IMG/VR virus record: IMGVR_UViG_3300050004_000004
Span: 1 to 28,076 of that record
Direction: 5' to 3' (one strand)
DNA length: 28,076 nucleotides
From: a virus
Lineage: Duplodnaviria; Caudoviricetes
The notes under the pieces are model-generated. The model was not told the DNA's origin, did not search any database, and was given only the letters and a program-made list of their open reading frames with translations. This document shows, piece by piece, positions 8,771 to 27,473 of the stretch (the first letter of the stretch is position 1; each line of letters begins with the position of its first letter). The translations under genes were made by a program, and so were the position numbers.

Positions 8771-9064
8771 CTAACCCTTCGCGGGGTCTCTGTACTTACG
8801 CTCTGGCTTTTCATCGAACCAGCGGGCAAAGACGTCTTCCCTGCGCCGCTTGCGTTCCGCTTCACTAAGTGGCTTCTTGCGCTTGCCGAGGTCCATTGCC
8901 TTTTCTAGATCGGCTTCTATTCCTCGGCCGAAGTGCATAACCGCCCTATCCAGATAAAAGCTGGCGAGCCTATCGCTTCGCACGAGGGCGAGGAGCTCGC
9001 TTGGCCGCTGGCCGTACGCTTGGCTCAGGTGCCATATCTCCCACACTCTCTTCGGGTTCTTCAC
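8771..9064 (-). CDS. Tail assembly chaperone downstream (T-like) frame, probably expressed as a frameshift fusion
   Basis: Overlaps the upstream chaperone by 95 nt in the +1 frame; ends 8 nt before the tape measure ATG; YGQRPSELL motif; no well-spaced SD of its own. Confidence 0.75.
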   Translation of the reverse strand: MKNPKRVWEIWHLSQAYGQRPSELLALVRSDRLASFYLDRAVMHFGRGIEADLEKAMDLGKRKKPLSEAERKRRREDVFARWFDEKPERKYRDPAKG

Positions 9065-9557
9065 GAAACTGCTCGGCGGTCCTCACCCCCTCCATCAGCT
9101 TGTTGAATACGGCCATTTTGTCGGAGAAGGGAACAGCGTCCGTGTAGTACAACCCGGCCACCCGCTCTTCGCCCTTACCCGGCGGCAGGTGCATTTCCGG
9201 TGCGACCACACCGAGGACCATTAGCTGGTCCATCACCTCTCGGAACGACCGAGAGTTTTCCGCGTTCTTCATGATCTCCTTCATGGAGACCTCGTCCAGG
9301 TTCGGCTCGTCCGGGTCCTCACCCGCACGCTTTGCGCGTTCCCGCTGAACGCGTTGCACTGGCGTCAGGCTGGCATTCTTGGCGTGGGTGTTCATCACCA
9401 CGCTCGTAGCGAAGTCCAGCTTGTCCAGTAGCCCATGCTCGCCGAGGCTCAGCGGGTCCATCTTGCGCAGCAGGCACAGGTCACCCGAGGGCAGTTTGAA
9501 TTCGAATTCAGCTTCCGCCCATGATTTCGGGGCGTACTTGTTTTCGGTGGAAGGCAT
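8970..9557 (-). CDS. Tail assembly chaperone (G-like), 195 aa
   Basis: Between major tail and tape measure; AGGAG SD; FKLPSG N-terminal motif. Confidence 0.85.
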   Translation of the reverse strand: MPSTENKYAPKSWAEAEFEFKLPSGDLCLLRKMDPLSLGEHGLLDKLDFATSVVMNTHAKNASLTPVQRVQRERAKRAGEDPDEPNLDEVSMKEIMKNAENSRSFREVMDQLMVLGVVAPEMHLPPGKGEERVAGLYYTDAVPFSDKMAVFNKLMEGVRTAEQFREEPEESVGDMAPEPSVRPAAKRAPRPRAKR

Positions 9558-9595: not shown

Positions 9596-10468
9596 TTACG
9601 CGGTTGTGGTTGCCTGGACCGGTCCGGCCCAGTTGGATGCGCCGTTGACGGCCGTGACTGCCCGCACCCGGAACTCGTAGTTGGTGGTGGCCGTGAGACC
9701 TGTCACCGTTGCGCCGGTTGTCGATTCGCCCGTCTGGTTGGCCTCGTCCACGTCGATCCACTCGCCGAAGGCGGTACGCATCTGGATCCAGTAGTCCTCG
9801 GCCCCCGGCGAACCGTTGGCTGCGGCGACCCACGTGAGGGGAGCGGTGGTTGCCGTCTCGGTCCCGACTGCCAGGCTGGTCGGCGGGGCTTGCAGCGTCG
9901 GCAGTGTGCGCGCGGTGCCGCTGATGGCGGTCGCTGTCTCGTTGACCTCGATGCTGTACAGCAGGTCGTTGACATCGTCCAGAATCGGCAGACCCTGGCC
10001 GGACGCGTTCGTTATGAAGAACTCGCCGTCCGCGAACTCACCTTCGATGGACTCGTTGCAACGGCACCGATACACGACCGCGTGCACGTCGCCACCGCTG
10101 TCCGAGATGATCTGCCCCTCGATGAGGAAGTAGCCCCGGGAGTCGCTGGAACGCTTGTCCAGACGCCACTTCCGGTTCGGAGCGACACCGGTCTGTGTGA
10201 CTGTGCCGCCGGTCATCACCTCCCAGATCCTCAGCTTGTAGCCACCAGCCTCGAGCTCCCACTCGATGGTCGCACCGGAACCGCGAATCGCAACCACGCG
10301 GTCATCGCCGCGCAGCTCCTGGAATTCCTCGGTCTCGGAGAAGCTGAAGGTCTGCATGTTCGGCAGGTCAATGACCTCCGAGCTGAGAACGCTGCCAGCC
10401 GCATCCGCGTACGGTGTGATCTTGAGGTCACGCATACCGTACGGGAGTGCCGTTGGTGCCGTCATCAT
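9596..10468 (-). CDS. Major tail tube protein with C-terminal FN3 domain
   Basis: Synteny; LPYGMRDLKITPY and EFQELRGDD tube-like motifs; high GC3; C-terminal LTWVAA..YWIQMR..VTGLTATTNYEFRVRAV FN3 pattern. Confidence 0.9.
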   Translation of the reverse strand: MMTAPTALPYGMRDLKITPYADAAGSVLSSEVIDLPNMQTFSFSETEEFQELRGDDRVVAIRGSGATIEWELEAGGYKLRIWEVMTGGTVTQTGVAPNRKWRLDKRSSDSRGYFLIEGQIISDSGGDVHAVVYRCRCNESIEGEFADGEFFITNASGQGLPILDDVNDLLYSIEVNETATAISGTARTLPTLQAPPTSLAVGTETATTAPLTWVAAANGSPGAEDYWIQMRTAFGEWIDVDEANQTGESTTGATVTGLTATTNYEFRVRAVTAVNGASNWAGPVQATTTA

Positions 10469-10671
10469 GCCTCCCTAACTTGCATATCGATTGTTTTGTA
10501 TTCTCTTGTGCCGAGCAGTTTTCCCGTTTCCACTTCGAATCTGTGGAGAACGACTTTGCCGGGCCTCCATCCGCACCTGTCCGAACGGCACGCGATCTCC
10601 AGCACGCCTGGAGACACCACGATGCCGTGGAGCTTGGCGTGGCAACGGAGCTCGTACGTGTCCTCGGTCAT
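10465..10671 (-). CDS. 68-aa Cys/His zinc-ribbon-like protein (Com-like)
   Basis: C-terminal part of track ORF 10465..11169; ATG 10671 in ATGA overlap with the upstream stop; ELRCHAKLHG...EIACRSDRC. Confidence 0.7.
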   Translation of the reverse strand: MTEDTYELRCHAKLHGIVVSPGVLEIACRSDRCGWRPGKVVLHRFEVETGKLLGTREYKTIDMQVREA

Positions 10672-11036
10672 GGCACCCGGAAGCCCCCGTCTTGGCGCAG
10701 CACCTGGAGTGCCTGTTCCGTGAAGACGCTCTTGGGGACCTTGTGGCCGGTGCGGCGATCCCATGCCACGAGCGGCATGCCGGTGACGCCTGCCTTTTCC
10801 CAGTCCGCGACGCTGATTTCGCGCTTGCCGAATTCCCCGAGGTATTCGACCATGGGCTCTTCGTCCCTGTCCGAGAACTCCACCGGCTTGCCTGCCATCT
10901 CGGCCTTCATGGTCTCGCCGAAGGTAGCCTCGGGTGCTCCGGTACCGGGCGACGCCCCGGACCCCGCTGGCTGCGGGTCGGAAGGGAGGGAGGGCGCGTC
11001 CCTCTGTGGCGTCGGCTGGTTCCTCTTGCCTACCAT
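10668..11036 (-). CDS. Hypothetical virion-module protein, 122 aa
   Basis: AAGGAG SD; disordered N-terminal half and globular C-terminal half; coupled to the next gene. Confidence 0.75.
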   Translation of the reverse strand: MVGKRNQPTPQRDAPSLPSDPQPAGSGASPGTGAPEATFGETMKAEMAGKPVEFSDRDEEPMVEYLGEFGKREISVADWEKAGVTGMPLVAWDRRTGHKVPKSVFTEQALQVLRQDGGFRVP

Positions 11037-11044
11037 GATTCTCC

Positions 11045-11467
11045 TTACGGGGTAACGATGCTGCGGGTTGCGGTACGGAACGTGACGTACTTGACGATGG
11101 TGCTGAACCCGTCGTCAACCAGGTCGCGACTGGTGTCCACCCACGTACCTGACGTGAGTGACCAGCCATCGGAGCCAGCCAAGTGCACCACGTTTTCCAT
11201 CAATGCCTTGATCTGTTCAATGGCTAGGTCAATGAGGCTATAGTCGCGACCCCTCTCTTTCGGAATGTGAACCCAGTAGCTCACTGTCTCAACACCGGTT
11301 ACGCCGAACACCTTCTCGGTCAGGTCTACGTTGATGACGATGAACGGATTGTCACGCGGTGGCGTGTCCAGTGCATTGCTGGCCCAGACGCGGTCCTGAA
11401 TGAATCCGAGCCCCTGCATTTCCGCGTCGTCGTAAACGAGACGTGCGTAGGATTCCCGAGCGGTCAT
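11045..11467 (-). CDS. Tail terminator / tail completion protein, 140 aa
   Basis: Size and position; P..PFIVI and WVH..R.Y..ID pattern typical of tail terminators. Confidence 0.75.
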   Translation of the reverse strand: MTARESYARLVYDDAEMQGLGFIQDRVWASNALDTPPRDNPFIVINVDLTEKVFGVTGVETVSYWVHIPKERGRDYSLIDLAIEQIKALMENVVHLAGSDGWSLTSGTWVDTSRDLVDDGFSTIVKYVTFRTATRSIVTP

Positions 11468-11832
11468 GACGCCTTCTCCATTCGCTCGAAAAGCCTGCTG
11501 AGCAATCGCATGAGCTCACGGTTGGCGCGCAGCAGCCCGGGGCGCACGATGGCGTATTGACCGCTGTTGGCCACTTCCAGCCAGATGCCGTACGACACCG
11601 AGTGGCTAAGTATCATCATCCAGGAATTGCGGTCCAGCTCGTCAACGGTGGCGAACAAGCCGTTGCGTGCATTCGTGGTGCGGTCCGTCCAGCGCGCGTT
11701 GGTGCGCATCCACGTTTCGCTCCTAGCCGCCTGGTAGTCCATGGTGGCCTTGATGCCTCGTCGGGCACGGGAGTCAAATTTCTTCAGGTTGTGATCAAGC
11801 TTGTCCAGATTGATCACGAATGAATTAGACAA
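11464..11832 (-). CDS. Neck / tail-completion protein (HK97 gp10-like), 122 aa
   Basis: TTG start with GGAGG SD; ARWTDRTTNARNGL, HSVSYGIWLE and YAIVRP motifs. Confidence 0.8.
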   Translation of the reverse strand: MSNSFVINLDKLDHNLKKFDSRARRGIKATMDYQAARSETWMRTNARWTDRTTNARNGLFATVDELDRNSWMMILSHSVSYGIWLEVANSGQYAIVRPGLLRANRELMRLLSRLFERMEKAS

Positions 11833-13108
11833 TGGAACCCCTCCGCCCGTAGCTCATGACGAGGCCCTTGCGCTCGTACCCGTTGTACGGGATCACTGCG
11901 TCCACGACGTACTTCTGGCCGTTGACGTCGTACCAGTAGTCGTTTTCCTGGATGACCGAGTCCCAGTTGCCGAGCAACGTCAGGTCATACTTGCGTTGTA
12001 CGCCACCACTTCCGAAGCCTGCGCCCGACGTGGATTGCACGGGGCGTTCCGTGTGCGCCATCGGGATCAACCGGAAGCGCTGCACCGTGCGGGCAGCGCC
12101 ATCTACGAGCGTTACCGCACCCGATGGTGTTCTAGCCTCTGTCTGCGGAATGAGAGCCAGGTCAACAGGGCTGGCCTCGATGAAGGCCATGGTGTTGAGC
12201 CGCTGCATGCGCAGTTCCATGCTGGCAGTGATGCCCGTTCCCCCAACGGCTTTCGGTAGCGTCCCGGCCAACGTGGCCGTGACCGTGGTTTGTTCGCCAG
12301 CGGTGAAGCTGGCCGTAGCGCGCGGCAAAGTACCCTCGAGGGACGCTGTGCCCGCAGGGTCGGCCTGAGCGGCCAGCACGGCCCGAGGCAGCGTGCCCGC
12401 TAGGTCGGCTACGGCCAAGACCCCCGCAGTAGCCGCCACGGTGGCTTTCGGTAGGGTCCCGGCCAGCGTGGCGGTTTCTGGGCCACCCGGCAGGTCGGGA
12501 CCAGCAACCCAGTCAACCGCCGTGCTGCCCGCGCTCAGGTGGCGTGCGTTGCCGCTGATGTCGTTCAGGTTATCGATGAGCGGCCAGTCTGCCCACGCTG
12601 CGAGTACCCCAGTGGGGGAAGCCCATTCCGCTTCGATTTCAGCCTGCGTCAGCTCACCGCTCAGTACGCGCCAGTACGCCAGGGACCCCAACAGGTTCTC
12701 GCTAGAATCCCCGGTATCCCGCCCACCCAACGTGATGCCGCCCGGGGTGTTCGTGCTCACCGTCCCCGAATCAACTTCCACCGAACCGAGGGGCGTTGCC
12801 GCGTACACCTTGCCCGTCGTGCCGAGGCATGTGATGGCCACTCGACGCCATTCCCCAACAACGAAGTTGGTGGAGCTGGACACCGAGCCGCCCCCGGTGA
12901 AGTAGTTCGGCCCGCTGGTGCCGTCGCTACCCGTGCCGAAGGTGACCACGGTTCCGAAAACCGCTGTCCAGACGCGAGCCAACACCGAGAACGTATTCGT
13001 ATCCGTGTCAACACGAGCCCAGCCCAGAACCGTGAGACCACTGGCAGGGTCGGGCAAAGCTCCGGATCGGCTGACCCGGTCTGTTGCTTGTCCGAACTGC
13101 GCTGCCAC
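11825..13108 (-). CDS. LamG/concanavalin-like domain + 4 repeats + head-tail stopper-like domain fusion, 427 aa
   Basis: Likely start GTG 13108 after AGGAGG. LamG pattern (LTVLGWARV, GEWRRVAIT, ITLGG, GSLAYWRV..LTQAEI); the C-terminal ~130 aa (QRFRLIP, YDLTLLG.WD..I..NDYW, YVVDAV) occupies the stopper slot. Confidence 0.75.
   Translation of the reverse strand: MAAQFGQATDRVSRSGALPDPASGLTVLGWARVDTDTNTFSVLARVWTAVFGTVVTFGTGSDGTSGPNYFTGGGSVSSSTNFVVGEWRRVAITCLGTTGKVYAATPLGSVEVDSGTVSTNTPGGITLGGRDTGDSSENLLGSLAYWRVLSGELTQAEIEAEWASPTGVLAAWADWPLIDNLNDISGNARHLSAGSTAVDWVAGPDLPGGPETATLAGTLPKATVAATAGVLAVADLAGTLPRAVLAAQADPAGTASLEGTLPRATASFTAGEQTTVTATLAGTLPKAVGGTGITASMELRMQRLNTMAFIEASPVDLALIPQTEARTPSGAVTLVDGAARTVQRFRLIPMAHTERPVQSTSGAGFGSGGVQRKYDLTLLGNWDSVIQENDYWYDVNGQKYVVDAVIPYNGYERKGLVMSYGRRGSIV
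12239..12478 (-). repeat. Four in-frame 21-23 aa repeats A-x-L-(A/E)-G-T-L-P-(K/R)-A
   Basis: ATLAGTLPKAT, ADLAGTLPRAV, ASLEGTLPRAT and ATLAGTLPKAV seen in the translation. Confidence 0.9.
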
Positions 13109-13116
13109 TGTTCCTC

Positions 13117-13533
13117 CTAGGCGGGCTGCGTGAAGGTGCCAGCGGTCAGGTTGACGTCGAGGCCCACGCTGACCGTGGTGGTGCTCATCTCGATGTCCTC
13201 GCCACTTCCGTCCGCACCAACCGATCCGTCGATGACCGTGTTGCCGTCGGAGTCCGCGCCACGCCACCAGGTAGCCGTTCCGGCGGCCACGCCCTCGGCG
13301 GCCAGCGGTAGACCCGCGACCGCCATGCTGCCCGCGCTCGGCGCACCGAAGCCGGTTGTGGCCAATGTGAACGTGAGAAGCAACGTGTTGCCCCCGCCCA
13401 CTGCGGTGTTCGCGTTGACTGGCCGCGTGCCGCTGTACACCTTGATGGTCCCGCCAGCCGCGCCTAGGTCGAAACGCGCGGCGAGCGAGCTCAGCTGCGC
13501 GTTCTGTGTGGCCGTTGCGTACCCGAGCGTCAT
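13117..13533 (-). CDS. 138-aa Gly/Ala/Thr-rich virion structural protein (fibre/appendage subunit-like)
   Basis: AAGGA SD; IKVYSGTRP, GTATWWR, IDGSVG and C-terminal TFTQPA motifs of a widespread phage all-beta family (recognised from memory). Confidence 0.7.
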   Translation of the reverse strand: MTLGYATATQNAQLSSLAARFDLGAAGGTIKVYSGTRPVNANTAVGGGNTLLLTFTLATTGFGAPSAGSMAVAGLPLAAEGVAAGTATWWRGADSDGNTVIDGSVGADGSGEDIEMSTTTVSVGLDVNLTAGTFTQPA

Positions 13534-16118: not shown

Positions 16119-16943
16119 CTACCTGTTCTTCCCGAGGGCCGGAAACCGCTTGATGAGCTCTTCATCCGAGAGCTGGCCTTTTGGCTTCGTGCCCTTGCCG
16201 TTGTTCTTGGCACTCCCGACGCCGGAACCGCTGGCACCGCGACGAGGGGGCTTCTTGTCGCCTTCCTCTTCGTCGTCACCGTCCTTTCCGGCATTCACGA
16301 GATACTTGTTGGCCTTCGCCAACGCCTTCACGACGTCGCGGATTCCCTCCACGTTGCCGTCCTCGTCGATCTCCAGGTCCTTGAGGTCGTCAGCCGCTGC
16401 CCGCTGCGCCACCTTGGGATTGTGCCACGCAATCTTCTCCTGCGCACTGGCGGTGAGGAATGCGTTGACCATGGCCACGTTCCTGAACTTTGTCTGGAGC
16501 GTGTCCCTTTCCTTGGTGGCGGTCTCGAGGTCCTTGCGAAGGTTCTCGAGCTCGGGCTTGTCCTTGCGCTCCTTCTCGTCCTTTTCTTTCTGGAGCGCGG
16601 CTGCCGTTTTCTCGGCCTCCGACCGCCGCTTGTCCGCAGCGCTCAGCCTGCGGGTAACAGCGTCGAATTCCTCCCTGGAAACGGGACCGGACTTCTTGCG
16701 CTTGCCATTGTTGCCCGCGTCGTCACCGTCGTTGTCGTCGGTGTCCTGCGCGTCATCATCGGCTTCGCCGTCGTCGTCATCCCCGCCCTCGTCGTCCGCA
16801 CCATCATCTTCCCCGTCGCCCCCGAGGAGCGGCCACACTGGAAGACCGTTGGCACGCAGGCCAACAGCCCGGAGCGGGGTACGCGTACCGGGGTAACAGA
16901 GAAGCGGGTGGAGCGGCATAGGGTCGACGAGATTCACCTTCAC
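16119..16943 (-). CDS. Scaffolding protein, 274 aa, with a 42-aa N-terminal leader
   Basis: GTG 16943 after AGGAGG; Asp-rich tract, coiled coil, KYLV motif, C-terminal ELIKRFPAL helix. Confidence 0.85.
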   Translation of the reverse strand: MKVNLVDPMPLHPLLCYPGTRTPLRAVGLRANGLPVWPLLGGDGEDDGADDEGGDDDDGEADDDAQDTDDNDGDDAGNNGKRKKSGPVSREEFDAVTRRLSAADKRRSEAEKTAAALQKEKDEKERKDKPELENLRKDLETATKERDTLQTKFRNVAMVNAFLTASAQEKIAWHNPKVAQRAAADDLKDLEIDEDGNVEGIRDVVKALAKANKYLVNAGKDGDDEEEGDKKPPRRGASGSGVGSAKNNGKGTKPKGQLSDEELIKRFPALGKNR

Positions 16944-17038
16944 GATTCCTCCTGGTTTTCGGTGTGCACTGTCACCGTGGATACGTGCGCGCAGGCACGT
17001 GGGCCTCACTGTAGCCGCCGAGAGGCATTCGGGGAAAG

Positions 17039-17956
17039 CTAGGCCACTTGGCTGGGCTTGGCCTGTCCGTATTCATCAATCAATCCGTCGAGGTAATCCG
17101 GATTGGAAACCAGGTCTAGGAAATCATCCTCGTCCATCATTTCGTTTGTCGTGAAACACAGACACTGCGGATGGGGCTTCCGGGGGAGGTCACTTGGAAC
17201 GTACAGACCGGGTCCTTTGCCCTCGCTGTGCCCTACCGCGTAGGCATCGCACTTGTCCGGTGTGGTGTGGCTGCGGGACAGGTTCCAGCGCAGTGCGGTC
17301 ACAAACGGGTTGATCTCCGCACTGGCCTTCTGCGTGGTGTGGAAGGCGTTGTTGAGCTCGGTGCGGGCTAGCCGCTTGGCCGCGTAGCTGACACCGCCCT
17401 TTGTGTTCGGATCAATCATGGGCTTCACGTCCTTGGCAATGTCCTGCCAGCTGCCGCCCTGCAGAATGACCCGGTTCACCGCTCGGTCAACAAACCCGTC
17501 CGCGAGCTGCCTAGTTCGGTACACCCGTTGAGAAAGTCCGATGCCATTCTGGCCTCGGGCGAGGTATGTGGCAACAGTTCGTCGAGCGTAGGCTCGCTGG
17601 GCTGAAACAAGCGCTTCACTGTCTCGGGCTCCCGTTGCCCGAAAAAGGATTCGCTGGAGAACAGCTTCGGCCTCGGCGGCTGCATCTGCGACAGCATTTC
17701 CAGCACTTCGAATACGCTTTCCGACATTCCGCCATAGTTCACTTGACACACCGCGCAGTTCCCTTCTGATAATGGCCAGCTGAGCACGGCGTACCACGGC
17801 TCCGATGCCGTGCCGAGACTCCAGTTTGTTGATGCGCCGTTGTGCGTCCGCCATGGCGTCCCGCAGGTCGTCAACGATGGCCACCTCGGCTACGCGCTCC
17901 CCGCGCAGGTACAGCGTCAGCGGATTGGCCCCGGGGCCAGTAAACGGGTTCGTCAC
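17039..17956 (-). CDS. MuF/SPP1-gp7-like minor head protein, 305 aa
   Basis: Directly after the portal; RLARTELNNA, SHxxxDKCD and PHPQCLC motifs; basic composition. Confidence 0.85.
   Translation of the reverse strand: MTNPFTGPGANPLTLYLRGERVAEVAIVDDLRDAMADAQRRINKLESRHGIGAVVRRAQLAIIRRELRGVSSELWRNVGKRIRSAGNAVADAAAEAEAVLQRILFRATGARDSEALVSAQRAYARRTVATYLARGQNGIGLSQRVYRTRQLADGFVDRAVNRVILQGGSWQDIAKDVKPMIDPNTKGGVSYAAKRLARTELNNAFHTTQKASAEINPFVTALRWNLSRSHTTPDKCDAYAVGHSEGKGPGLYVPSDLPRKPHPQCLCFTTNEMMDEDDFLDLVSNPDYLDGLIDEYGQAKPSQVA
17476..17751 (-). CDS. Candidate overprinted +1-frame gene inside MuF (91 aa from GTG 17751, or 83 aa from ATG 17727)
   Basis: Open +1 frame coinciding with a sharp GC3 drop in the MuF frame; SD-like AGAAGGGA 8 nt before the GTG. 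Confidence 0.45.
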   Translation of the reverse strand: MCQVNYGGMSESVFEVLEMLSQMQPPRPKLFSSESFFGQREPETVKRLFQPSEPTLDELLPHTSPEARMASDFLNGCTELGSSRTGLLTER

Positions 17957-19524
17957 ACTGGCACATCCTCGTCGGCGTCGTCTTCAGCGCCTTCCTCCTC
18001 GCGCCGGGAATCCGCCTCGGCGTCATCCTGCTCTGCATTCAGGTTCGCGAATTGCTCCGTTTCCTGAATGATGAGCTGTAGCTCGTTGTCCTCCATTTCG
18101 TACCCGGCTTCCCGCAGCAGGCGCAGGCTTGTCTGGAGGCTGATCAGTGGGGGCGTTGCCATCCGCATTGTCATGATGTCGTCCAGCAGTTGCTTGCGGT
18201 TGACCGGGATCTTGTTTCCGATGGTGGGCTGCACCACGACGGCAGGGGTGGTCACACCGCCTTCGCCCGTCATCAGCAATGGCAGCTCTTCGTACACCGT
18301 CAACCAGAAACACAGGTCGTGGAACATCTGCGCGTGCACATCTATAATGTGCTGATCTTTCGGCTTGGTGTGCGCGATCATCGGGGCCAGCTGCAAGGCC
18401 AGTGCGATGCCGGATTCCGCCGTGGCACTGTCTACCTTGCCGATGGCTGCGTCGCTGGCCCCTAGCGCGCTGCGTACCGCGTCAACGAGCCGCGTGTAGT
18501 GGTCGCCGTAGGCAGCCAGACTCGTCGCCCCAGTGATGCGCCTGAGCCCCGGAGCCTGCGTGAGAACGCGCCCTGGCCCCATGATCCAGTCGACCTCGTT
18601 GCCCGCCTCGTCGCGCGGTGCCCCGCCATCGCTGGCGTACACCCCGATGCCCTCGATGGCGAGCGTAAGGTCCTCATCGCTGATGGTTTGGTTGATGCCT
18701 AGCAACGCGGACTCCAGCCCCCGCAGTTCACTTGAGCCGAACGGGGCTGTTGGGTCGATGTTCTTCAGGTGGTACACCGGAATCGCCGGTATCTCGGCGG
18801 GCAGCGGTTCCGGGCTGAGGATCACGCTGAACGGACTTGCCGCCGTACCCGCCCACTCGTCCGGCTTGTGCAGCGCGTGGCTTCGGATGATCTCTACCTG
18901 GTTGCCCGCCTCATCGAAAACGCGCTCGTACGTCATACGGCTGACGTATTCCTGCTTGTTCACTGTGATCGGTTCGGCCAGGTGCACGCGGACGATCTTG
19001 TCCGGGTCCCCGCCCTCGACCACATCCGCTTCGTACACGGGGAAGTAGGCTGCCGGGTCCACTGCCATGATCTTGATGCGCCGCCCGATTGGCTTGGCGT
19101 CGTCCGCGATGATGTGCCACAGCCAGTCGCCTCGGTAGAGGCCCTTCAGCTTGTTGCTGCTGAACTTGCTGAGGAACTGCTCTCGTGTGAACAGTGCCTC
19201 GAAGGCAAGCTGGGCAATCTGCACGGGGCCGCTGGCCGCCGTGTCGCCAGGCTCCGCACCGGGGGCCGTGATGGTGTAGTTGAAGTCCGGTGCGGTGTAC
19301 CGGTCCACGGCATTGATGAGCGTGCGCGCGGTCGGCATGAAGATGGGGTTGTCATTGTCGCCCCGCATTACCTCCAGGAAGCCCTCTTCGGACGACCAGT
19401 AGATCTCCTCGTACTTGCCGTACGCCTGAATGCGGATCTTGTCCGCCTCCGGCACCCATCCCGGTGCCTGGCCCAACCAGGGCTCGATGGTGGACCACTG
19501 CGTGAACACCGTAGGCGAAGTCAT
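17953..19524 (-). CDS. Portal protein, 523 aa
   Basis: Size and position; FGSSELRGLE and AESGIALALQLAP motifs; acidic C-terminal tail. Confidence 0.92.
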   Translation of the reverse strand: MTSPTVFTQWSTIEPWLGQAPGWVPEADKIRIQAYGKYEEIYWSSEEGFLEVMRGDNDNPIFMPTARTLINAVDRYTAPDFNYTITAPGAEPGDTAASGPVQIAQLAFEALFTREQFLSKFSSNKLKGLYRGDWLWHIIADDAKPIGRRIKIMAVDPAAYFPVYEADVVEGGDPDKIVRVHLAEPITVNKQEYVSRMTYERVFDEAGNQVEIIRSHALHKPDEWAGTAASPFSVILSPEPLPAEIPAIPVYHLKNIDPTAPFGSSELRGLESALLGINQTISDEDLTLAIEGIGVYASDGGAPRDEAGNEVDWIMGPGRVLTQAPGLRRITGATSLAAYGDHYTRLVDAVRSALGASDAAIGKVDSATAESGIALALQLAPMIAHTKPKDQHIIDVHAQMFHDLCFWLTVYEELPLLMTGEGGVTTPAVVVQPTIGNKIPVNRKQLLDDIMTMRMATPPLISLQTSLRLLREAGYEMEDNELQLIIQETEQFANLNAEQDDAEADSRREEEGAEDDADEDVPV

Positions 19525-19880: not shown

Positions 19881-21319
19881 CGTGCGCTCCTTGCCCTTCT
19901 GCGCGGTGTCACCGAGCGTGGTCCGCGTGTGTGCCTGGTGTTGCGAATGACGGGCGGCATCAATGCCTTCTCGCCGAAATGCCCCCTGAAGAAACGGCCG
20001 AGCGCTTCGGGCGCGTGGTCATCCTTCTTCATCGGCTCTTCTTTGGCGTTAGCCGATTCCTCGTCCTTCGTCTTCGGGTAGCGATACGCCTCCATTTCCG
20101 AAATCAACATCTTGCATTTCGGATTGACCAGCAGGCGCGGTCGCCGGTCCGGGTGGTCGTAGTCCAGGTGCTCGTTCTCGTCCTTGAGCCATTTGCGAAT
20201 AAGCTCGAGACGTACCTTGATCTCGCCACCCGTGTCGCCCATGGTTTGCAGGCGTAGCTTCTCGGCCAGTGTGTGGCTGGCTGCGGGGTCGGCAGGGTCG
20301 GGGTAGAGCCGAGTAGCCACCCGCGTCAGCGACGCGTGTGCGGCCGACTGAGCGTTGTTCTGAAGGTCGTACGCCACCTCTTCGGGGCTGCGGTGATTCT
20401 GGTAGTACTCGTCAATGACGTGCACGTGGTCCCACGGGTCCACCTGAATGAACAGCACCACCGAAGGGTTCGTCCAGCCGTAGTCCGTGGCAAGGAATAC
20501 TGGCCATGCCGGGTTGTATTCCGCGAGGTGGCTATCGACGTGCCATTCCTCGTCCCAGTCCTTGAATACCTGCCCGACGTACTTGCCGAACTTCGCTAGG
20601 ACTTCCTGTGCCCCCATTTCCTCGGACATGCCTCGCAGCATAGAGAGGATCTCAGGGTCATCCTTGCCCAGCGGGAATACTCTCTCATTAGCGTAAGACG
20701 GAAAGCGAAAGCTTTCCCACTCCGGATCAGTACCGTGCTGACCCACGCCCCATAGGTCATAGAACCAGTTCCTTCCCTCTGGCGTGGAATTGAACTTGCC
20801 CCACCCGCGAAAGTCCGCCAGCGTCGGGCGGATGTACTGGTCCCAGATGCGCCGCTTCATCTTGGCGGCCTCGGCCATGATCACACCGGAAAGGCCCTCA
20901 CCGACCAGGTTCTCCGGATACTTGGCGGACTGCGCCTTCAGCAGGAAACGGCCACCCCATAGCGACACCTGCATGTCGCCGCCACGCGAGTCGTAATAGG
21001 TACCAGGCTTGTCGAACGGCATCTGCAATGCCTTGGCCTTGTTATGGAAGGCACGGAACTCTTTCTCCGAGTCGGTATACTGCGGACCCGTGATCCAGTA
21101 CTCGTGACGGATACCCAGCTCGGCCAGGTGGTCCTTCTGCATGTACGCCCGATAGCACTCGGGAATGAGCTCCATGCCTCCCGCCGTGGACTTGCCGGTA
21201 CGACGACCAGCGGCGACCACTTGGAACCGTGCGCGGGACGCGTGAATGCGACGTTGTGCCTTGTTCGGCACATAGCCGATTTTCGCCCACGTCTGATTCT
21301 TAGCGATCACCAATGCCAC
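19877..21319 (-). CDS. terL: Terminase large subunit, 480 aa
   Basis: Q motif (NKAQ), Walker A AGRRTGKST, variant Walker B VIMAE, C-motif STP, nuclease motifs TDYGWTNP, DPAD and DDHAPEA; AGGAG SD. Confidence 0.95.
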   Translation of the reverse strand: MALVIAKNQTWAKIGYVPNKAQRRIHASRARFQVVAAGRRTGKSTAGGMELIPECYRAYMQKDHLAELGIRHEYWITGPQYTDSEKEFRAFHNKAKALQMPFDKPGTYYDSRGGDMQVSLWGGRFLLKAQSAKYPENLVGEGLSGVIMAEAAKMKRRIWDQYIRPTLADFRGWGKFNSTPEGRNWFYDLWGVGQHGTDPEWESFRFPSYANERVFPLGKDDPEILSMLRGMSEEMGAQEVLAKFGKYVGQVFKDWDEEWHVDSHLAEYNPAWPVFLATDYGWTNPSVVLFIQVDPWDHVHVIDEYYQNHRSPEEVAYDLQNNAQSAAHASLTRVATRLYPDPADPAASHTLAEKLRLQTMGDTGGEIKVRLELIRKWLKDENEHLDYDHPDRRPRLLVNPKCKMLISEMEAYRYPKTKDEESANAKEEPMKKDDHAPEALGRFFRGHFGEKALMPPVIRNTRHTRGPRSVTPRRRARSAR

Positions 21320-24471: not shown

Positions 24472-24667
24472 TCTGCTTGATCCTGTCTATCCGAGCCTGC
24501 CTGCGAATGTCGTCCGCGACGGATTCAATTGACGAAGCCGGGTCTGCCGGATCAGTCAACTGTGCCAGCATCAACAGCTCGTTGCTGTCATCATTCACGT
24601 CGTGCGGCTCCGGCTGCACGAGACCCGGATAGCCACCGTATTCTGAACCGCCTCGTGGATATGTCAT
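24461..24667 (-). CDS. Hypothetical acidic protein, about 68 aa, first gene after the control region
   Basis: ATG 24667 after GAGGGG; overlaps the next gene. Confidence 0.55.
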   Translation of the reverse strand: MTYPRGGSEYGGYPGLVQPEPHDVNDDSNELLMLAQLTDPADPASSIESVADDIRRQARIDRIKQNGR

Positions 24668-24736
24668 GCCTACCAACCCCTCGTAAGAGTATCGAGTACG
24701 CCTACGCGCCTTTCGGTTCTGACGATTTCTGAACTT

Positions 24737-24764
24737 AGTTTATCACGCCCAGAATGAGGAACAA
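24737..24764 (-). promoter_or_regulatory. Candidate sigma70-type promoter for the packaging/structural operon
   Basis: Minus strand TTGTTC-16 nt-TAAACT with extended -10 TGn, in the largest and most AT-rich intergenic gap. Confidence 0.45.
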
Positions 24765-24828
24765 TGAGACCCTAACTGAGAGCAAACAATCAAACGATTG
24801 AACTAGTCCTCCCTATAGTAGAACTAAG

Positions 24829-24855
24829 TCTTTCTTTCTTTCTTTCTTTCTTTCT
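24829..24855. repeat. Tetranucleotide tandem repeat (CTTT)6
   Basis: t-(cttt)6-ct read directly from the sequence. Confidence 0.95.
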
Positions 24856-24873
24856 AGTTACTCACTTGTGACT

Positions 24874-26428: not shown

Positions 26429-26915
26429 CGAGCGCCCTCCCTATCTTGTGGGCCAGCTGGTGAACGGCCGACAGGCGCTGCCAGCCCTTCATGGCCTCCT
26501 GCACCCGACCGAGCCTGACTTCCGCCTTGCCCATGCGCTCCACGGCCATCAGCGCGGTTTGCTTCTCCAGTGTCACGGCGCGGAAGTGTTGAACGCCAAG
26601 CTGCCGCGCGTCCGTCGCCCACTTGGCCAGGCGGTCGCCGCTCGCCGTAAGTTCTTCTAGTTGACCGGGACGAGCAGAGATGTTTGCCTGCGCGTACAGC
26701 TTGCGCGCTTCCGCCATCAGGGCAATGGACAACTGCTCCGCCGACGTGCCTGGCCGCAGGTTCTGGTCGAAACCGGTAGCCAGCAACAACATCGAGTCAG
26801 CCCAGCCCTGAATGAGCTGGCCGAGACCGCCCCCGACCTCGTCGGCTGCTCGTGCTACTGCCTGCGCCAGGTGCCGCAGGTCTTCCGGGGTCACACCTTG
26901 CGCGTCAGTAGTCAC
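26421..26915 (-). CDS. Hypothetical helical/coiled-coil protein, 164 aa
   Basis: Tiles the operon; helical composition. Confidence 0.65.
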   Translation of the reverse strand: MTTDAQGVTPEDLRHLAQAVARAADEVGGGLGQLIQGWADSMLLLATGFDQNLRPGTSAEQLSIALMAEARKLYAQANISARPGQLEELTASGDRLAKWATDARQLGVQHFRAVTLEKQTALMAVERMGKAEVRLGRVQEAMKGWQRLSAVHQLAHKIGRALDE

Positions 26916-27237
26916 TGGCGTCCCCGTTCGCGTAGCGCCCCGCCAGCACGGCGGCTTCGCGGCTCAGATAGCCGCTGTGCGCCCGAATGACGTCGGGGGT
27001 ACCCAGCAACTGAACCAGCGACGCTATGCCCTCAGGGGCCGAATCAGCGTCGAGAGCGGCCACCACCAGTGCGCGCACGCGGCGGTCGCGCCGGTAGGTG
27101 GACCAGCTCGTCACGGCACCTATGGTCATCCCGCCGAGGGCTGCGCCAGCGACGCCAAGGGGGCCACCCCAGATGAACCCCATGACGACACCGCTCAGGG
27201 CCAAGGCAATCGCGAGGCAAATCCCAACCTGCTTCAC
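26905..27237 (-). CDS. Membrane protein, about 110 aa, two N-terminal TM segments
   Basis: GTG 27237 in GTGA overlap; ICLAIALALSGVVMGFIW and GVAGAALGGMTIGAV. Confidence 0.6.
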   Translation of the reverse strand: MKQVGICLAIALALSGVVMGFIWGGPLGVAGAALGGMTIGAVTSWSTYRRDRRVRALVVAALDADSAPEGIASLVQLLGTPDVIRAHSGYLSREAAVLAGRYANGDASDY

Positions 27238-27473
27238 GAGGCCACCCCCTGCCAACGCGGTACCGCCATCTCCCATTCCTGCGAGAAGTATTCCCGTAGC
27301 CGCCACCACGACTCCTCCAGGGGCCATGCGAGAGCCAGTACGACAACGCGAGCCGTATCCCGCGCGCTGACCCGGCGCAAGCCGTGGTTGCCCAGCTCCC
27401 AGTTCCGCGCCAACGCGAACAATGCGGCCACCAGATAGGACGCGACGAGTGTGCAAGCCAGTAATCCCAACAT
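27234..27473 (-). CDS. Membrane protein, about 79 aa
   Basis: ATG 27473 after AGGAG; two hydrophobic segments, LALAWPL motif. Confidence 0.6.
   Translation of the reverse strand: MLGLLACTLVASYLVAALFALARNWELGNHGLRRVSARDTARVVVLALAWPLEESWWRLREYFSQEWEMAVPRWQGVAS

Follow-up and report, generated by a model that had tools for sequence, protein, structure and literature searches.

A probable young overprinted gene in the +1 frame of a MuF-like head morphogenesis gene of an uncultured soil phage

The DNA analysed here, a stretch of 28,076 nucleotides referred to below as the window, comes from a tailed phage and has all its structural genes on the minus strand. It originates from an uncultured soil phage: the sequencing runs containing most of the window are soil metagenomes. 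Four of 22 runs were compared, and these gave identical low-depth contigs, with one differing letter across 12 pieces. The genes are arranged in the order terminase small and large subunits, a small protease-like gene, portal, MuF, scaffold, major capsid, and tail genes. The MuF-like protein matched PHROG 17987 (E 5e-49) and PHROG 1657 (E 3e-34); it has 878 protein homologues, and in tblastn it matched 188 phage records, the best of them at 37-38% identity. Judged by this wide distribution and its intactness, the MuF reading frame is the ancestral one. The MuF of the window is a short form devoid of the toxin extension, with no PF03496 domain, and its residues 119-210 are highly conserved. The nearest named phages have actinobacterial hosts, with MuF and capsid identities below 60%, and no solved structure was found for the MuF group of the window. 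The features of the locus are as follows.

17953-19524, minus strand: portal gene
17039-17956, minus strand: MuF-like head morphogenesis gene, 305 aa, with portal on one side and scaffold on the other
17476-17751, minus strand: nested +1 ORF, 91 aa from GTG 17751, MuF codons 69-160; alternative starts GTG 17742 (88 aa) and ATG 17727 (83 aa)
17476-17478, minus strand: +1 stop TGA, overlapping the GTG of MuF codon 160 as GTGA
17760-17767, minus strand: Shine-Dalgarno (SD)-like AGAAGGGA, formed by MuF codons AGA AGG GAA, 8 nt before GTG 17751
17752-17874, minus strand: upstream +1 extension to TTG 17874, with SD-like GAGGTG (-11.1 kcal/mol), giving 132 aa
17483-17602, minus strand: near-frozen third-position block, MuF codons 119-158, encoding EPTLDELLPHTSPEARMASDFLNGCTELGSSR in the +1 frame
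17546-17574, minus strand: sigma-70-like site TTGCCA-17-CAGAAT, central in the frozen block, 9 of 12 positions matching
17566-17769, plus strand: 67-aa antisense ORF whose codon positions coincide with those of the +1 ORF

The +1 frame is open from MuF codon 23 to the TGA at codon 160, and can start at TTG 17874, GTG 17751, GTG 17742, or ATG 17727. The translation given in the earlier note, 91 aa from GTG 17751 or 83 aa from ATG 17727 with AGAAGGGA 8 nt upstream of the former, proved exact. Both starts were placed correctly, but the frame reaches further up than that note had it, to TTG 17874, and the third start, GTG 17742, had been missed. The SD-like sequence before GTG 17751 is only moderate: its energy of -5.6 kcal/mol lies in the range of the real genes (-3.9 to -12.1), and among 172 background internal +1 starts 24% equalled it in energy and 17/172 in motif. 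The ORF was called as a gene in the contig of the window (P0121) and in other clusters (P0122-P0127, P0136), a preference of the gene caller that partly restates the codon skew described below. As the caller picked the +1 ORF (83 aa) together with a 146-aa MuF tail, the full-length MuF of the window is absent from the protein collection; the databases thus misannotate the locus, reducing MuF to a 146-aa fragment. The GTGA overlap (17476-17479, minus strand), specific to this lineage and to P0125, could couple translation into the 146-aa C-terminal MuF fragment.

The MuF codons overlapped by the ORF are unusual in their third positions. The count made by hand in the earlier note, 45 of the 84 codons in 17476-17728 ending in A or T between flanks of mostly G/C-ending codons, was reproduced on recounting (flanks, 21/76 upstream and 36/145 downstream), and a change-point permutation supported it (p=0.0002). 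Elsewhere the highest 84-codon value was 30/84, in genes with a secure frame and start; left out of this comparison were four ORFs with higher A/T values (1167-1916, 10465-11169, 26905-27456, and the first codons of 11825-13267), as probable wrong frames or wrong starts. Third positions of codons 69-159 are nearly uniform in composition (T26 G18 A24 C23), against a genome-wide third-position G/C of about 77%, and none of 3000 synonymous recodings with the codon usage of the genome reached the observed A/T level. The left edge of the skew falls within codons 44-72, and codons 40-68 are only weakly skewed (9/29 A/T-ending). The right edge is supported anywhere within codons 127-159, with a best estimate of 143, so that the earlier claim that the anomaly ends at the +1 TGA (codon 160) is compatible with the interval, but the edge is not a sharp one.

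The direction of the skew depends on the amino acid. At Arg and Gly codons of the stretch, A outnumbers T by 13:2, against a background of 0.39 (p=0.0002), while at Val and Leu codons the ratio of A to T is 1:7 (p=0.08), with the rare GTA, CTA, and TTA almost unused (1/8). The choice of A at Arg/Gly would place Asp or Glu in the +1 product, and that of T at Val/Leu would place Phe or Leu there and avoid stops. Part of this pattern is also predicted by codon de-optimisation, since CGA and GGA are rare codons in the genome. The richness of the product in E, L, F, and M, to which the earlier note drew attention, mostly restates the skew, because the third position of a MuF codon is the second position of a +1 codon; only the excess of acidic residues goes further. 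The 91-aa product carries 13 D/E and 8 K/R, and the underlying MuF stretch 15 K/R and 8 D/E. Under a class-preserving null 5.8 D/E would be expected, and none of about 180 open null draws reached 13, a measure that was chosen after the sequence had been inspected. The overall +1 amino-acid likelihood was not above the same null (window, P=0.31; L010, P=0.18).

MuF loci with DNA numbered 133, or 92 after the removal of duplicates and partial matches, with a few near-duplicates remaining among the distant ones; GTDB genomes held three remote MuF loci, and a search by DNA pattern returned four stretches, three of them unrelated to MuF. Only four loci exceeded 60% identity to the MuF of the window: L010 in genome G001 (89%), L012 in G002 (73%), L011 (65%), and L093 (65%). 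The +1 stops in close homologues that, according to the earlier note, would speak against dual coding were not found over codons 69-159 in L010, L012, or L011, but L093 has one at codon 116. Under a null that keeps the amino acids and the A/T class of each codon, 0.8 open frames would be expected among these four loci, as compared to the three observed (P ~0.02 if the lineages are independent); with the same null, 4 of 88 distant loci were open, as against 3.2 expected. For the window alone the probability of an open frame is 0.06-0.18. Openness by itself is therefore modest evidence. At the protein level, +1 stops forced by Met were seen in 0/40 MuF proteins above 62% identity and in 9/57 at 40-52%.

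The skew was more informative than the openness. In local A/T excess the window ranked first, L012 second, and L010 fourth among 93 MuF sequences, the 88 distant genes having a mean of -0.015 (sd 0.07); no skew was seen in L011, despite its open frame, or in L093. Taken alone, the skew of L010, whose background is higher, is marginal (p=0.057); no boundary interval is given for it because its profile is not restricted to A/T-rich segments. G002 shares only about 0.27 of its synonymous codons with the window in this segment, and it has A or T at 22 of 40 sites that are G or C in the window (genome-wide baseline 0.14, p=4e-9), indicating that the skew was gained separately there, under a pressure that is local and persistent. 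Its skew begins within codons 24-58, upstream of its own +1 stop at codon 62, and ends within codons 177-191, with its own +1 stop at codon 177. In keeping with that, codons 160-176 are A/T-ending at 2/17 positions in the window as compared to 8/17 in L010 and 7/17 in L012 (p=0.02). Thus, in the window and in G002 the right edge of the skew tracks the +1 stop of each genome. Among the long open +1 stretches of each genome, this one ranked first for gene-like codons in the window (1/17), G001 (1/14), and G002 (1/13), and third of 12 in G004, a 54% relative. The upstream extension that gives the 132-aa form is probably outside the gene, as +1 stops occur at codon 54 in L010 and codon 62 in L012 and the skew is weak there.

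A search with the +1 product returned four candidates, all of them related: its own call (83 aa), P0122 (82%), P0123 (61%), and P0124 (62%). A profile search added P0136, the relatives then making up 5 of 2052 candidates, so that the product is called in four sequence clusters besides that of the window, five in total. The MuF codons of these relatives were inferred from protein, each +1 residue giving two bases per MuF codon; the procedure reproduced positions 2 and 3 of the window itself without error, leaving first bases ambiguous. Four of the six lineages compared were found through the +1 protein and are biased toward its conservation, whereas L010 was found independently. In five lineages (window, P0122, P0123, P0124, and L010) third positions were invariant at 32/38 sites in codons 119-158, as compared to 10/30 in codons 78-118 and 1/10 in codons 160-172. 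The pairwise comparison of the window with G001 gave the same picture, with 14 of 17 A/T-ending codons identical within the block (baseline 0.39, p=0.0004) and 13/28 A/T sites identical in codons 69-118, which equals the baseline (p=0.27). The synonymous conservation that the earlier note proposed as a check is thus present in codons 119-158, but the N-half (69-118) is without pairwise constraint. MuF residues in the segment are 87-95% identical inside the clade.

The sixth lineage, P0136, does not have the frozen block (21-24 of 38-39 sites identical) and carries radical +1 changes in it, such as DELLPH to GGRSLP. Nevertheless, 17 A/T-ending codons within codons 78-158 are invariant over all six lineages, and P0136 retains them even though it lacks the -35 box of the sigma-70-like site. 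In the +1 frame these codons contribute to L, E, Q, F, M, D, and N. In addition, the rare AGA at Arg83 is required in four lineages for +1 Leu-Glu.

The ends of the ORF vary. No start codon is common to all relatives: a start is possible at codon 69 in the window, L010, P0123, and P0124, at codon 72 in the window, P0125, L010, and L012, and at codon 77 in the window, P0125, P0122, and P0123. The products of P0123 and P0124 begin on the codon matching GTG 17751, and L010 keeps this GTG at codon 69, with AAGGA at identical spacing built from other codons (CGA AAG GAA). All nine MuF proteins of at least 84% identity have G-V, S-V, or I-V at residues 69-70, which permits a start at codon 69, while P0136 is unable to start there. 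In G002 a strong SD-like sequence (-9.5) precedes an ATG at codon 72. The position of the +1 stop is lineage-specific as well, with relatives terminating at codons 162-195.

The sigma-70-like site in the middle of the block, which the earlier note had missed, is a possible internal promoter for the scaffold and capsid genes and, as such, either a rival or an added source of constraint. It is present in the five block lineages, that of G001 among them, and absent in G002. Sites of this kind occur at chance level, with 1 found and 0.6 expected in 4.5 kb, and 2 found and 2.9 expected in 20 kb, and the only other promoter-like site with CAGAAT (24667) is not conserved in G001. Because of these counts and its absence in G002, the site cannot account for the wide skew, though it may be the cause of the frozen block. 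That a promoter coexists with an overprinted gene is possible, though we do not regard it as probable. At the RNA level no structure signal was found (z = -0.06 for the block and 0.40 for the whole ORF), Rfam gave no match at E<=1, and no 12-mer of the block recurs within the window.

The predicted product resembles nothing else in the collections searched. No family match was found in PHROGs, Pfam (one match at 0.17 was disregarded), or 50,697 phage records; Foldseek against BFVD gave 0 matches at E<=0.001 with a weak query model, and the best feature scores in the ESM Atlas, 0.82 and 0.87, were at chance level. The new frame is thus confined to a sub-clade, with no homologues outside it in any of these five resources. 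AlphaFold placed helices at residues 11-22, 42-49, and 65-83 with no compact fold, in a weak model (pLDDT 61, pTM 0.21, 8 sequences in the alignment). Substitutions in the +1 frame were not significantly conservative (z 0.3-1.3 in N-half pairs), and the +1 product of G002 is basic (23 K/R, 6 D/E) and only 20-27% identical to the family.

We consider that MuF codons 69-160 are best read as, and probably are, a young, clade-restricted overprinted gene that is translated and under selection. The dual coding for a protein of 83-91 aa proposed in the earlier note thereby gains comparative support, but with qualifications: the start is not fixed, the SD is moderate, one 65% relative has a stop, and the best-conserved part contains a promoter-like site. 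Under this reading, the late head-gene mRNA would be translated internally from a GTG or ATG within codons 69-77. The product would be small (about 90 residues), acidic, and, by prediction, loosely helical, and selection on it would hold the MuF third positions off the G/C preference of the genome. As to its role, we can only offer a rather doubtful guess: a late accessory protein with a basic partner that itself binds nucleic acid, for which the Arg-rich N-half of MuF would be the first candidate. SPP1 gp7, the studied MuF protein, is described in two papers as binding the portal, binding DNA, and being present in one or two copies (PMC6316719, PMC5576092). Given the DNA binding and low copy number of gp7, an acidic partner encoded in the same stretch could hold back a low-copy, DNA-binding MuF until it is loaded on the portal. 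The basic product of G002 does not fit such a function.

An alternative needs no second protein. A promoter would freeze codons 119-152, rare codons that slow the synthesis of a low-copy protein would give the skew, and the +1 frame would be open by composition, as an Ala/Arg-rich stretch seldom yields +1 stops. The promoter-like site is indeed centred in the block, whose size would suit a promoter and whose conservation equals that of the 5' region of the scaffold gene (96% over 102 nt), and the block decays in P0136, which has no -35 box; moreover, the openness of the window alone (0.06-0.18) and the rarity of CGA and GGA would be accounted for. However, the site occurs no more often than by chance and its counterpart at 24667 is not conserved in G001; G002 has the skew and the open frame with no such site; the skew is about 270 nt long and, in two genomes, has an edge that moves with the +1 stop; GTA, CTA, and TTA, rare as they are, make up only 1/8; and distant MuF genes have no local skew. 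We therefore regard this explanation as unlikely. The block could also have been acquired by recent recombinational exchange, with the skew left over from a donor of lower GC. No gene compared between the window and G001 has a longer run of identical codons than the 21 found here, and the conservation of MuF residues 119-210 would favour exchange. Yet five lineages with the same block differ on both sides of it, members of the clade agree at 87-95% of the MuF residues in the segment, G002 reached the skew via different codons, and no donor was found among 50,697 phage records, so that nothing points to the low-GC donor considered in the earlier note, and such an origin is very improbable.

The product might instead arise by ribosomal frameshifting from MuF, for example at CUU UUU CGG (codons 104-106, 17647-17639), yielding a short MuF isoform with a new C-terminus. 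UUU_CGN is a +1 shift motif in RNA viruses, codon 105 is TTT in all six lineages despite the rarity of this codon, and a shift there would account both for the 3' half being most frozen and for the variable start. Nonetheless, the skew begins at codons 44-72, well ahead of codon 105, the base that follows is A in P0123 and P0124, G002 has TTC, and starts with SD-like sequences are present, leaving a frameshift with a very small probability. Least probable of all is a constraint due to the antisense ORF at 17566-17769. This ORF is open in the window, L010, and L012, and the left edge of the skew in G002 (24-58) takes in the antisense stop of that genome at codon 42. However, an antisense stop is forced at codon 82 in four lineages (P0122, P0123, P0124, and P0136) and at codon 105 in two, the ATG is missing in L012 and P0136, the SD-like GAGGT abuts the ATG, and the remaining genes of the region are all on the minus strand. 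Further antisense stops at codons 124, 133, and 148 of inferred sequences were not used, as they hinge on an arbitrary choice of first base. With its forced stops and no PHROG match, the antisense ORF was rejected as a constrained gene.

Genes nested in other genes are known in phages, for example, Rz1 in Rz of λ and 18.7 in 18.5 of T7, and like the ORF of the window these are embedded out of frame in late genes of tailed phages. Rz1, for its part, belongs to the lipoprotein spanins of Gram-negative hosts. An embedded spanin of this type was rejected for the window, as the product has no hydrophobic leader or lipobox, its ORF sits within a head gene, and the neighbours are portal and scaffold rather than lysis genes.

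The closest published parallel to an overprinted gene in MuF is in mycobacteriophage Patience, where a 171-bp ORF is nested in the MuF-like gene 20 and two of its peptides were detected by mass spectrometry (PMC4324244). It has its own start with a ribosome binding site and is not conserved in Barnyard or Konstantine, and the authors consider that it may be an artefact of a non-cognate host (same source). As in the window, the gene belongs to the MuF family (37.5% identity), and the ORF is on the same strand, wholly embedded, and preceded by a ribosome binding site. In contrast, the sequences are unrelated, the ORF of Patience is in the +2 frame at gp20 codons 19-75 and that of the window in +1 at codons 69-160, and the evidence there consists of peptides, whereas here it is comparative, for a predicted gene. 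With a different frame and position, the ORF of Patience is a precedent rather than a homologue.

Viruses are known to carry overprinted accessory genes, phiX174 E and K being examples (PMC8227390). The locus resembles what is described there for de novo overprinted viral genes in having a widespread ancestral frame and a clade-restricted, fast-evolving new frame, probably accessory. It differs from E and K in belonging to a large dsDNA tailed phage of a high-GC host, with translation that is only predicted. In the overlap the codons of the new frame are as genome-like as those of MuF (0.29 vs. 0.15), contrary to what the usual criterion of codon usage expects. Phage genes nested in others have already been published, including one within a different MuF gene, and the present locus would add another case. 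For SPP1 gp7, no nested gene is reported in the available parts of the papers (PMC6316719, PMC5576092). We found no report of overprinting at the present locus in a literature search that covered mainly open-access papers.

In MuF polymorphic toxins, immunity ORFs lie downstream of the toxin gene (PMC5576092). These toxins share the MuF superfamily with the window, which, unlike them, has a short MuF with no toxin domain and an ORF nested in the N-half. A toxin immunity gene was rejected on these grounds: the MuF is of 305 aa without PF03496, and the ORF is not downstream of it. As a side observation, a C-terminal ADP-ribosyltransferase domain (PF03496) was found in 5 of the 28 closest MuF homologues (72-81% identity), namely P0018, P0022, P0024, P0027, and P0028, and also at 2908-4584 of L002, G002 being among the carriers. 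In G002 there is no in-strand ORF of at least 60 aa between the ADP-ribosyltransferase-bearing MuF and the scaffold gene. The MuFs with this domain occupy three places in the tree, which suggests repeated gain or loss.

If the overprinted gene is real, it has been caught early, in one clade of soil phages, with its start and stop still moving and its sequence fully turned over in a 73%-identical relative. The case of Patience, which its authors could not separate from noise, would then become part of a MuF pattern. One could go on to suppose that overprinted genes arise time and again in the helical N-half of MuF genes, the cases being the acidic +1 product of this clade, the basic +1 product of G002, and the +2 product of Patience, and that each product is a built-in regulator or antidote beside the packed and injected MuF or MuF-toxin cargo; we think this improbable. 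An overprinted MuF gene in itself opens no new mechanism.

Several other stretches of the window deserve mention. Over terL codons 155-240 (20599-20857, minus strand), the +1 frame of the window, G001, and G002 stays open for 86-93 codons, with a stop in G004; in the three open genomes the stretch ranks near the top for gene-like codons, and shared A/T-ending codons cluster at codons 195-230. It is possibly a second overprint or a cis element. An A/T-rich intergenic stretch at 24690-24870 has GAAA repeats on the minus strand and no blastn match in G001 or G002. A tail assembly chaperone pair (PHROG 4336 and 6778) occupies 8771-9557 (minus strand); its A/T-ending codons are conserved near codons 156-195, which is what one would expect in the vicinity of a programmed frameshift. 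Finally, 16890-16991 (minus strand), upstream of the likely scaffold start, is 96% identical to G001 over 102 nt. A GGAGG SD lies near 16950, the ORF start listed at 17009 being probably too far upstream, and the stretch is probably a conserved 5' regulatory region of the scaffold gene.
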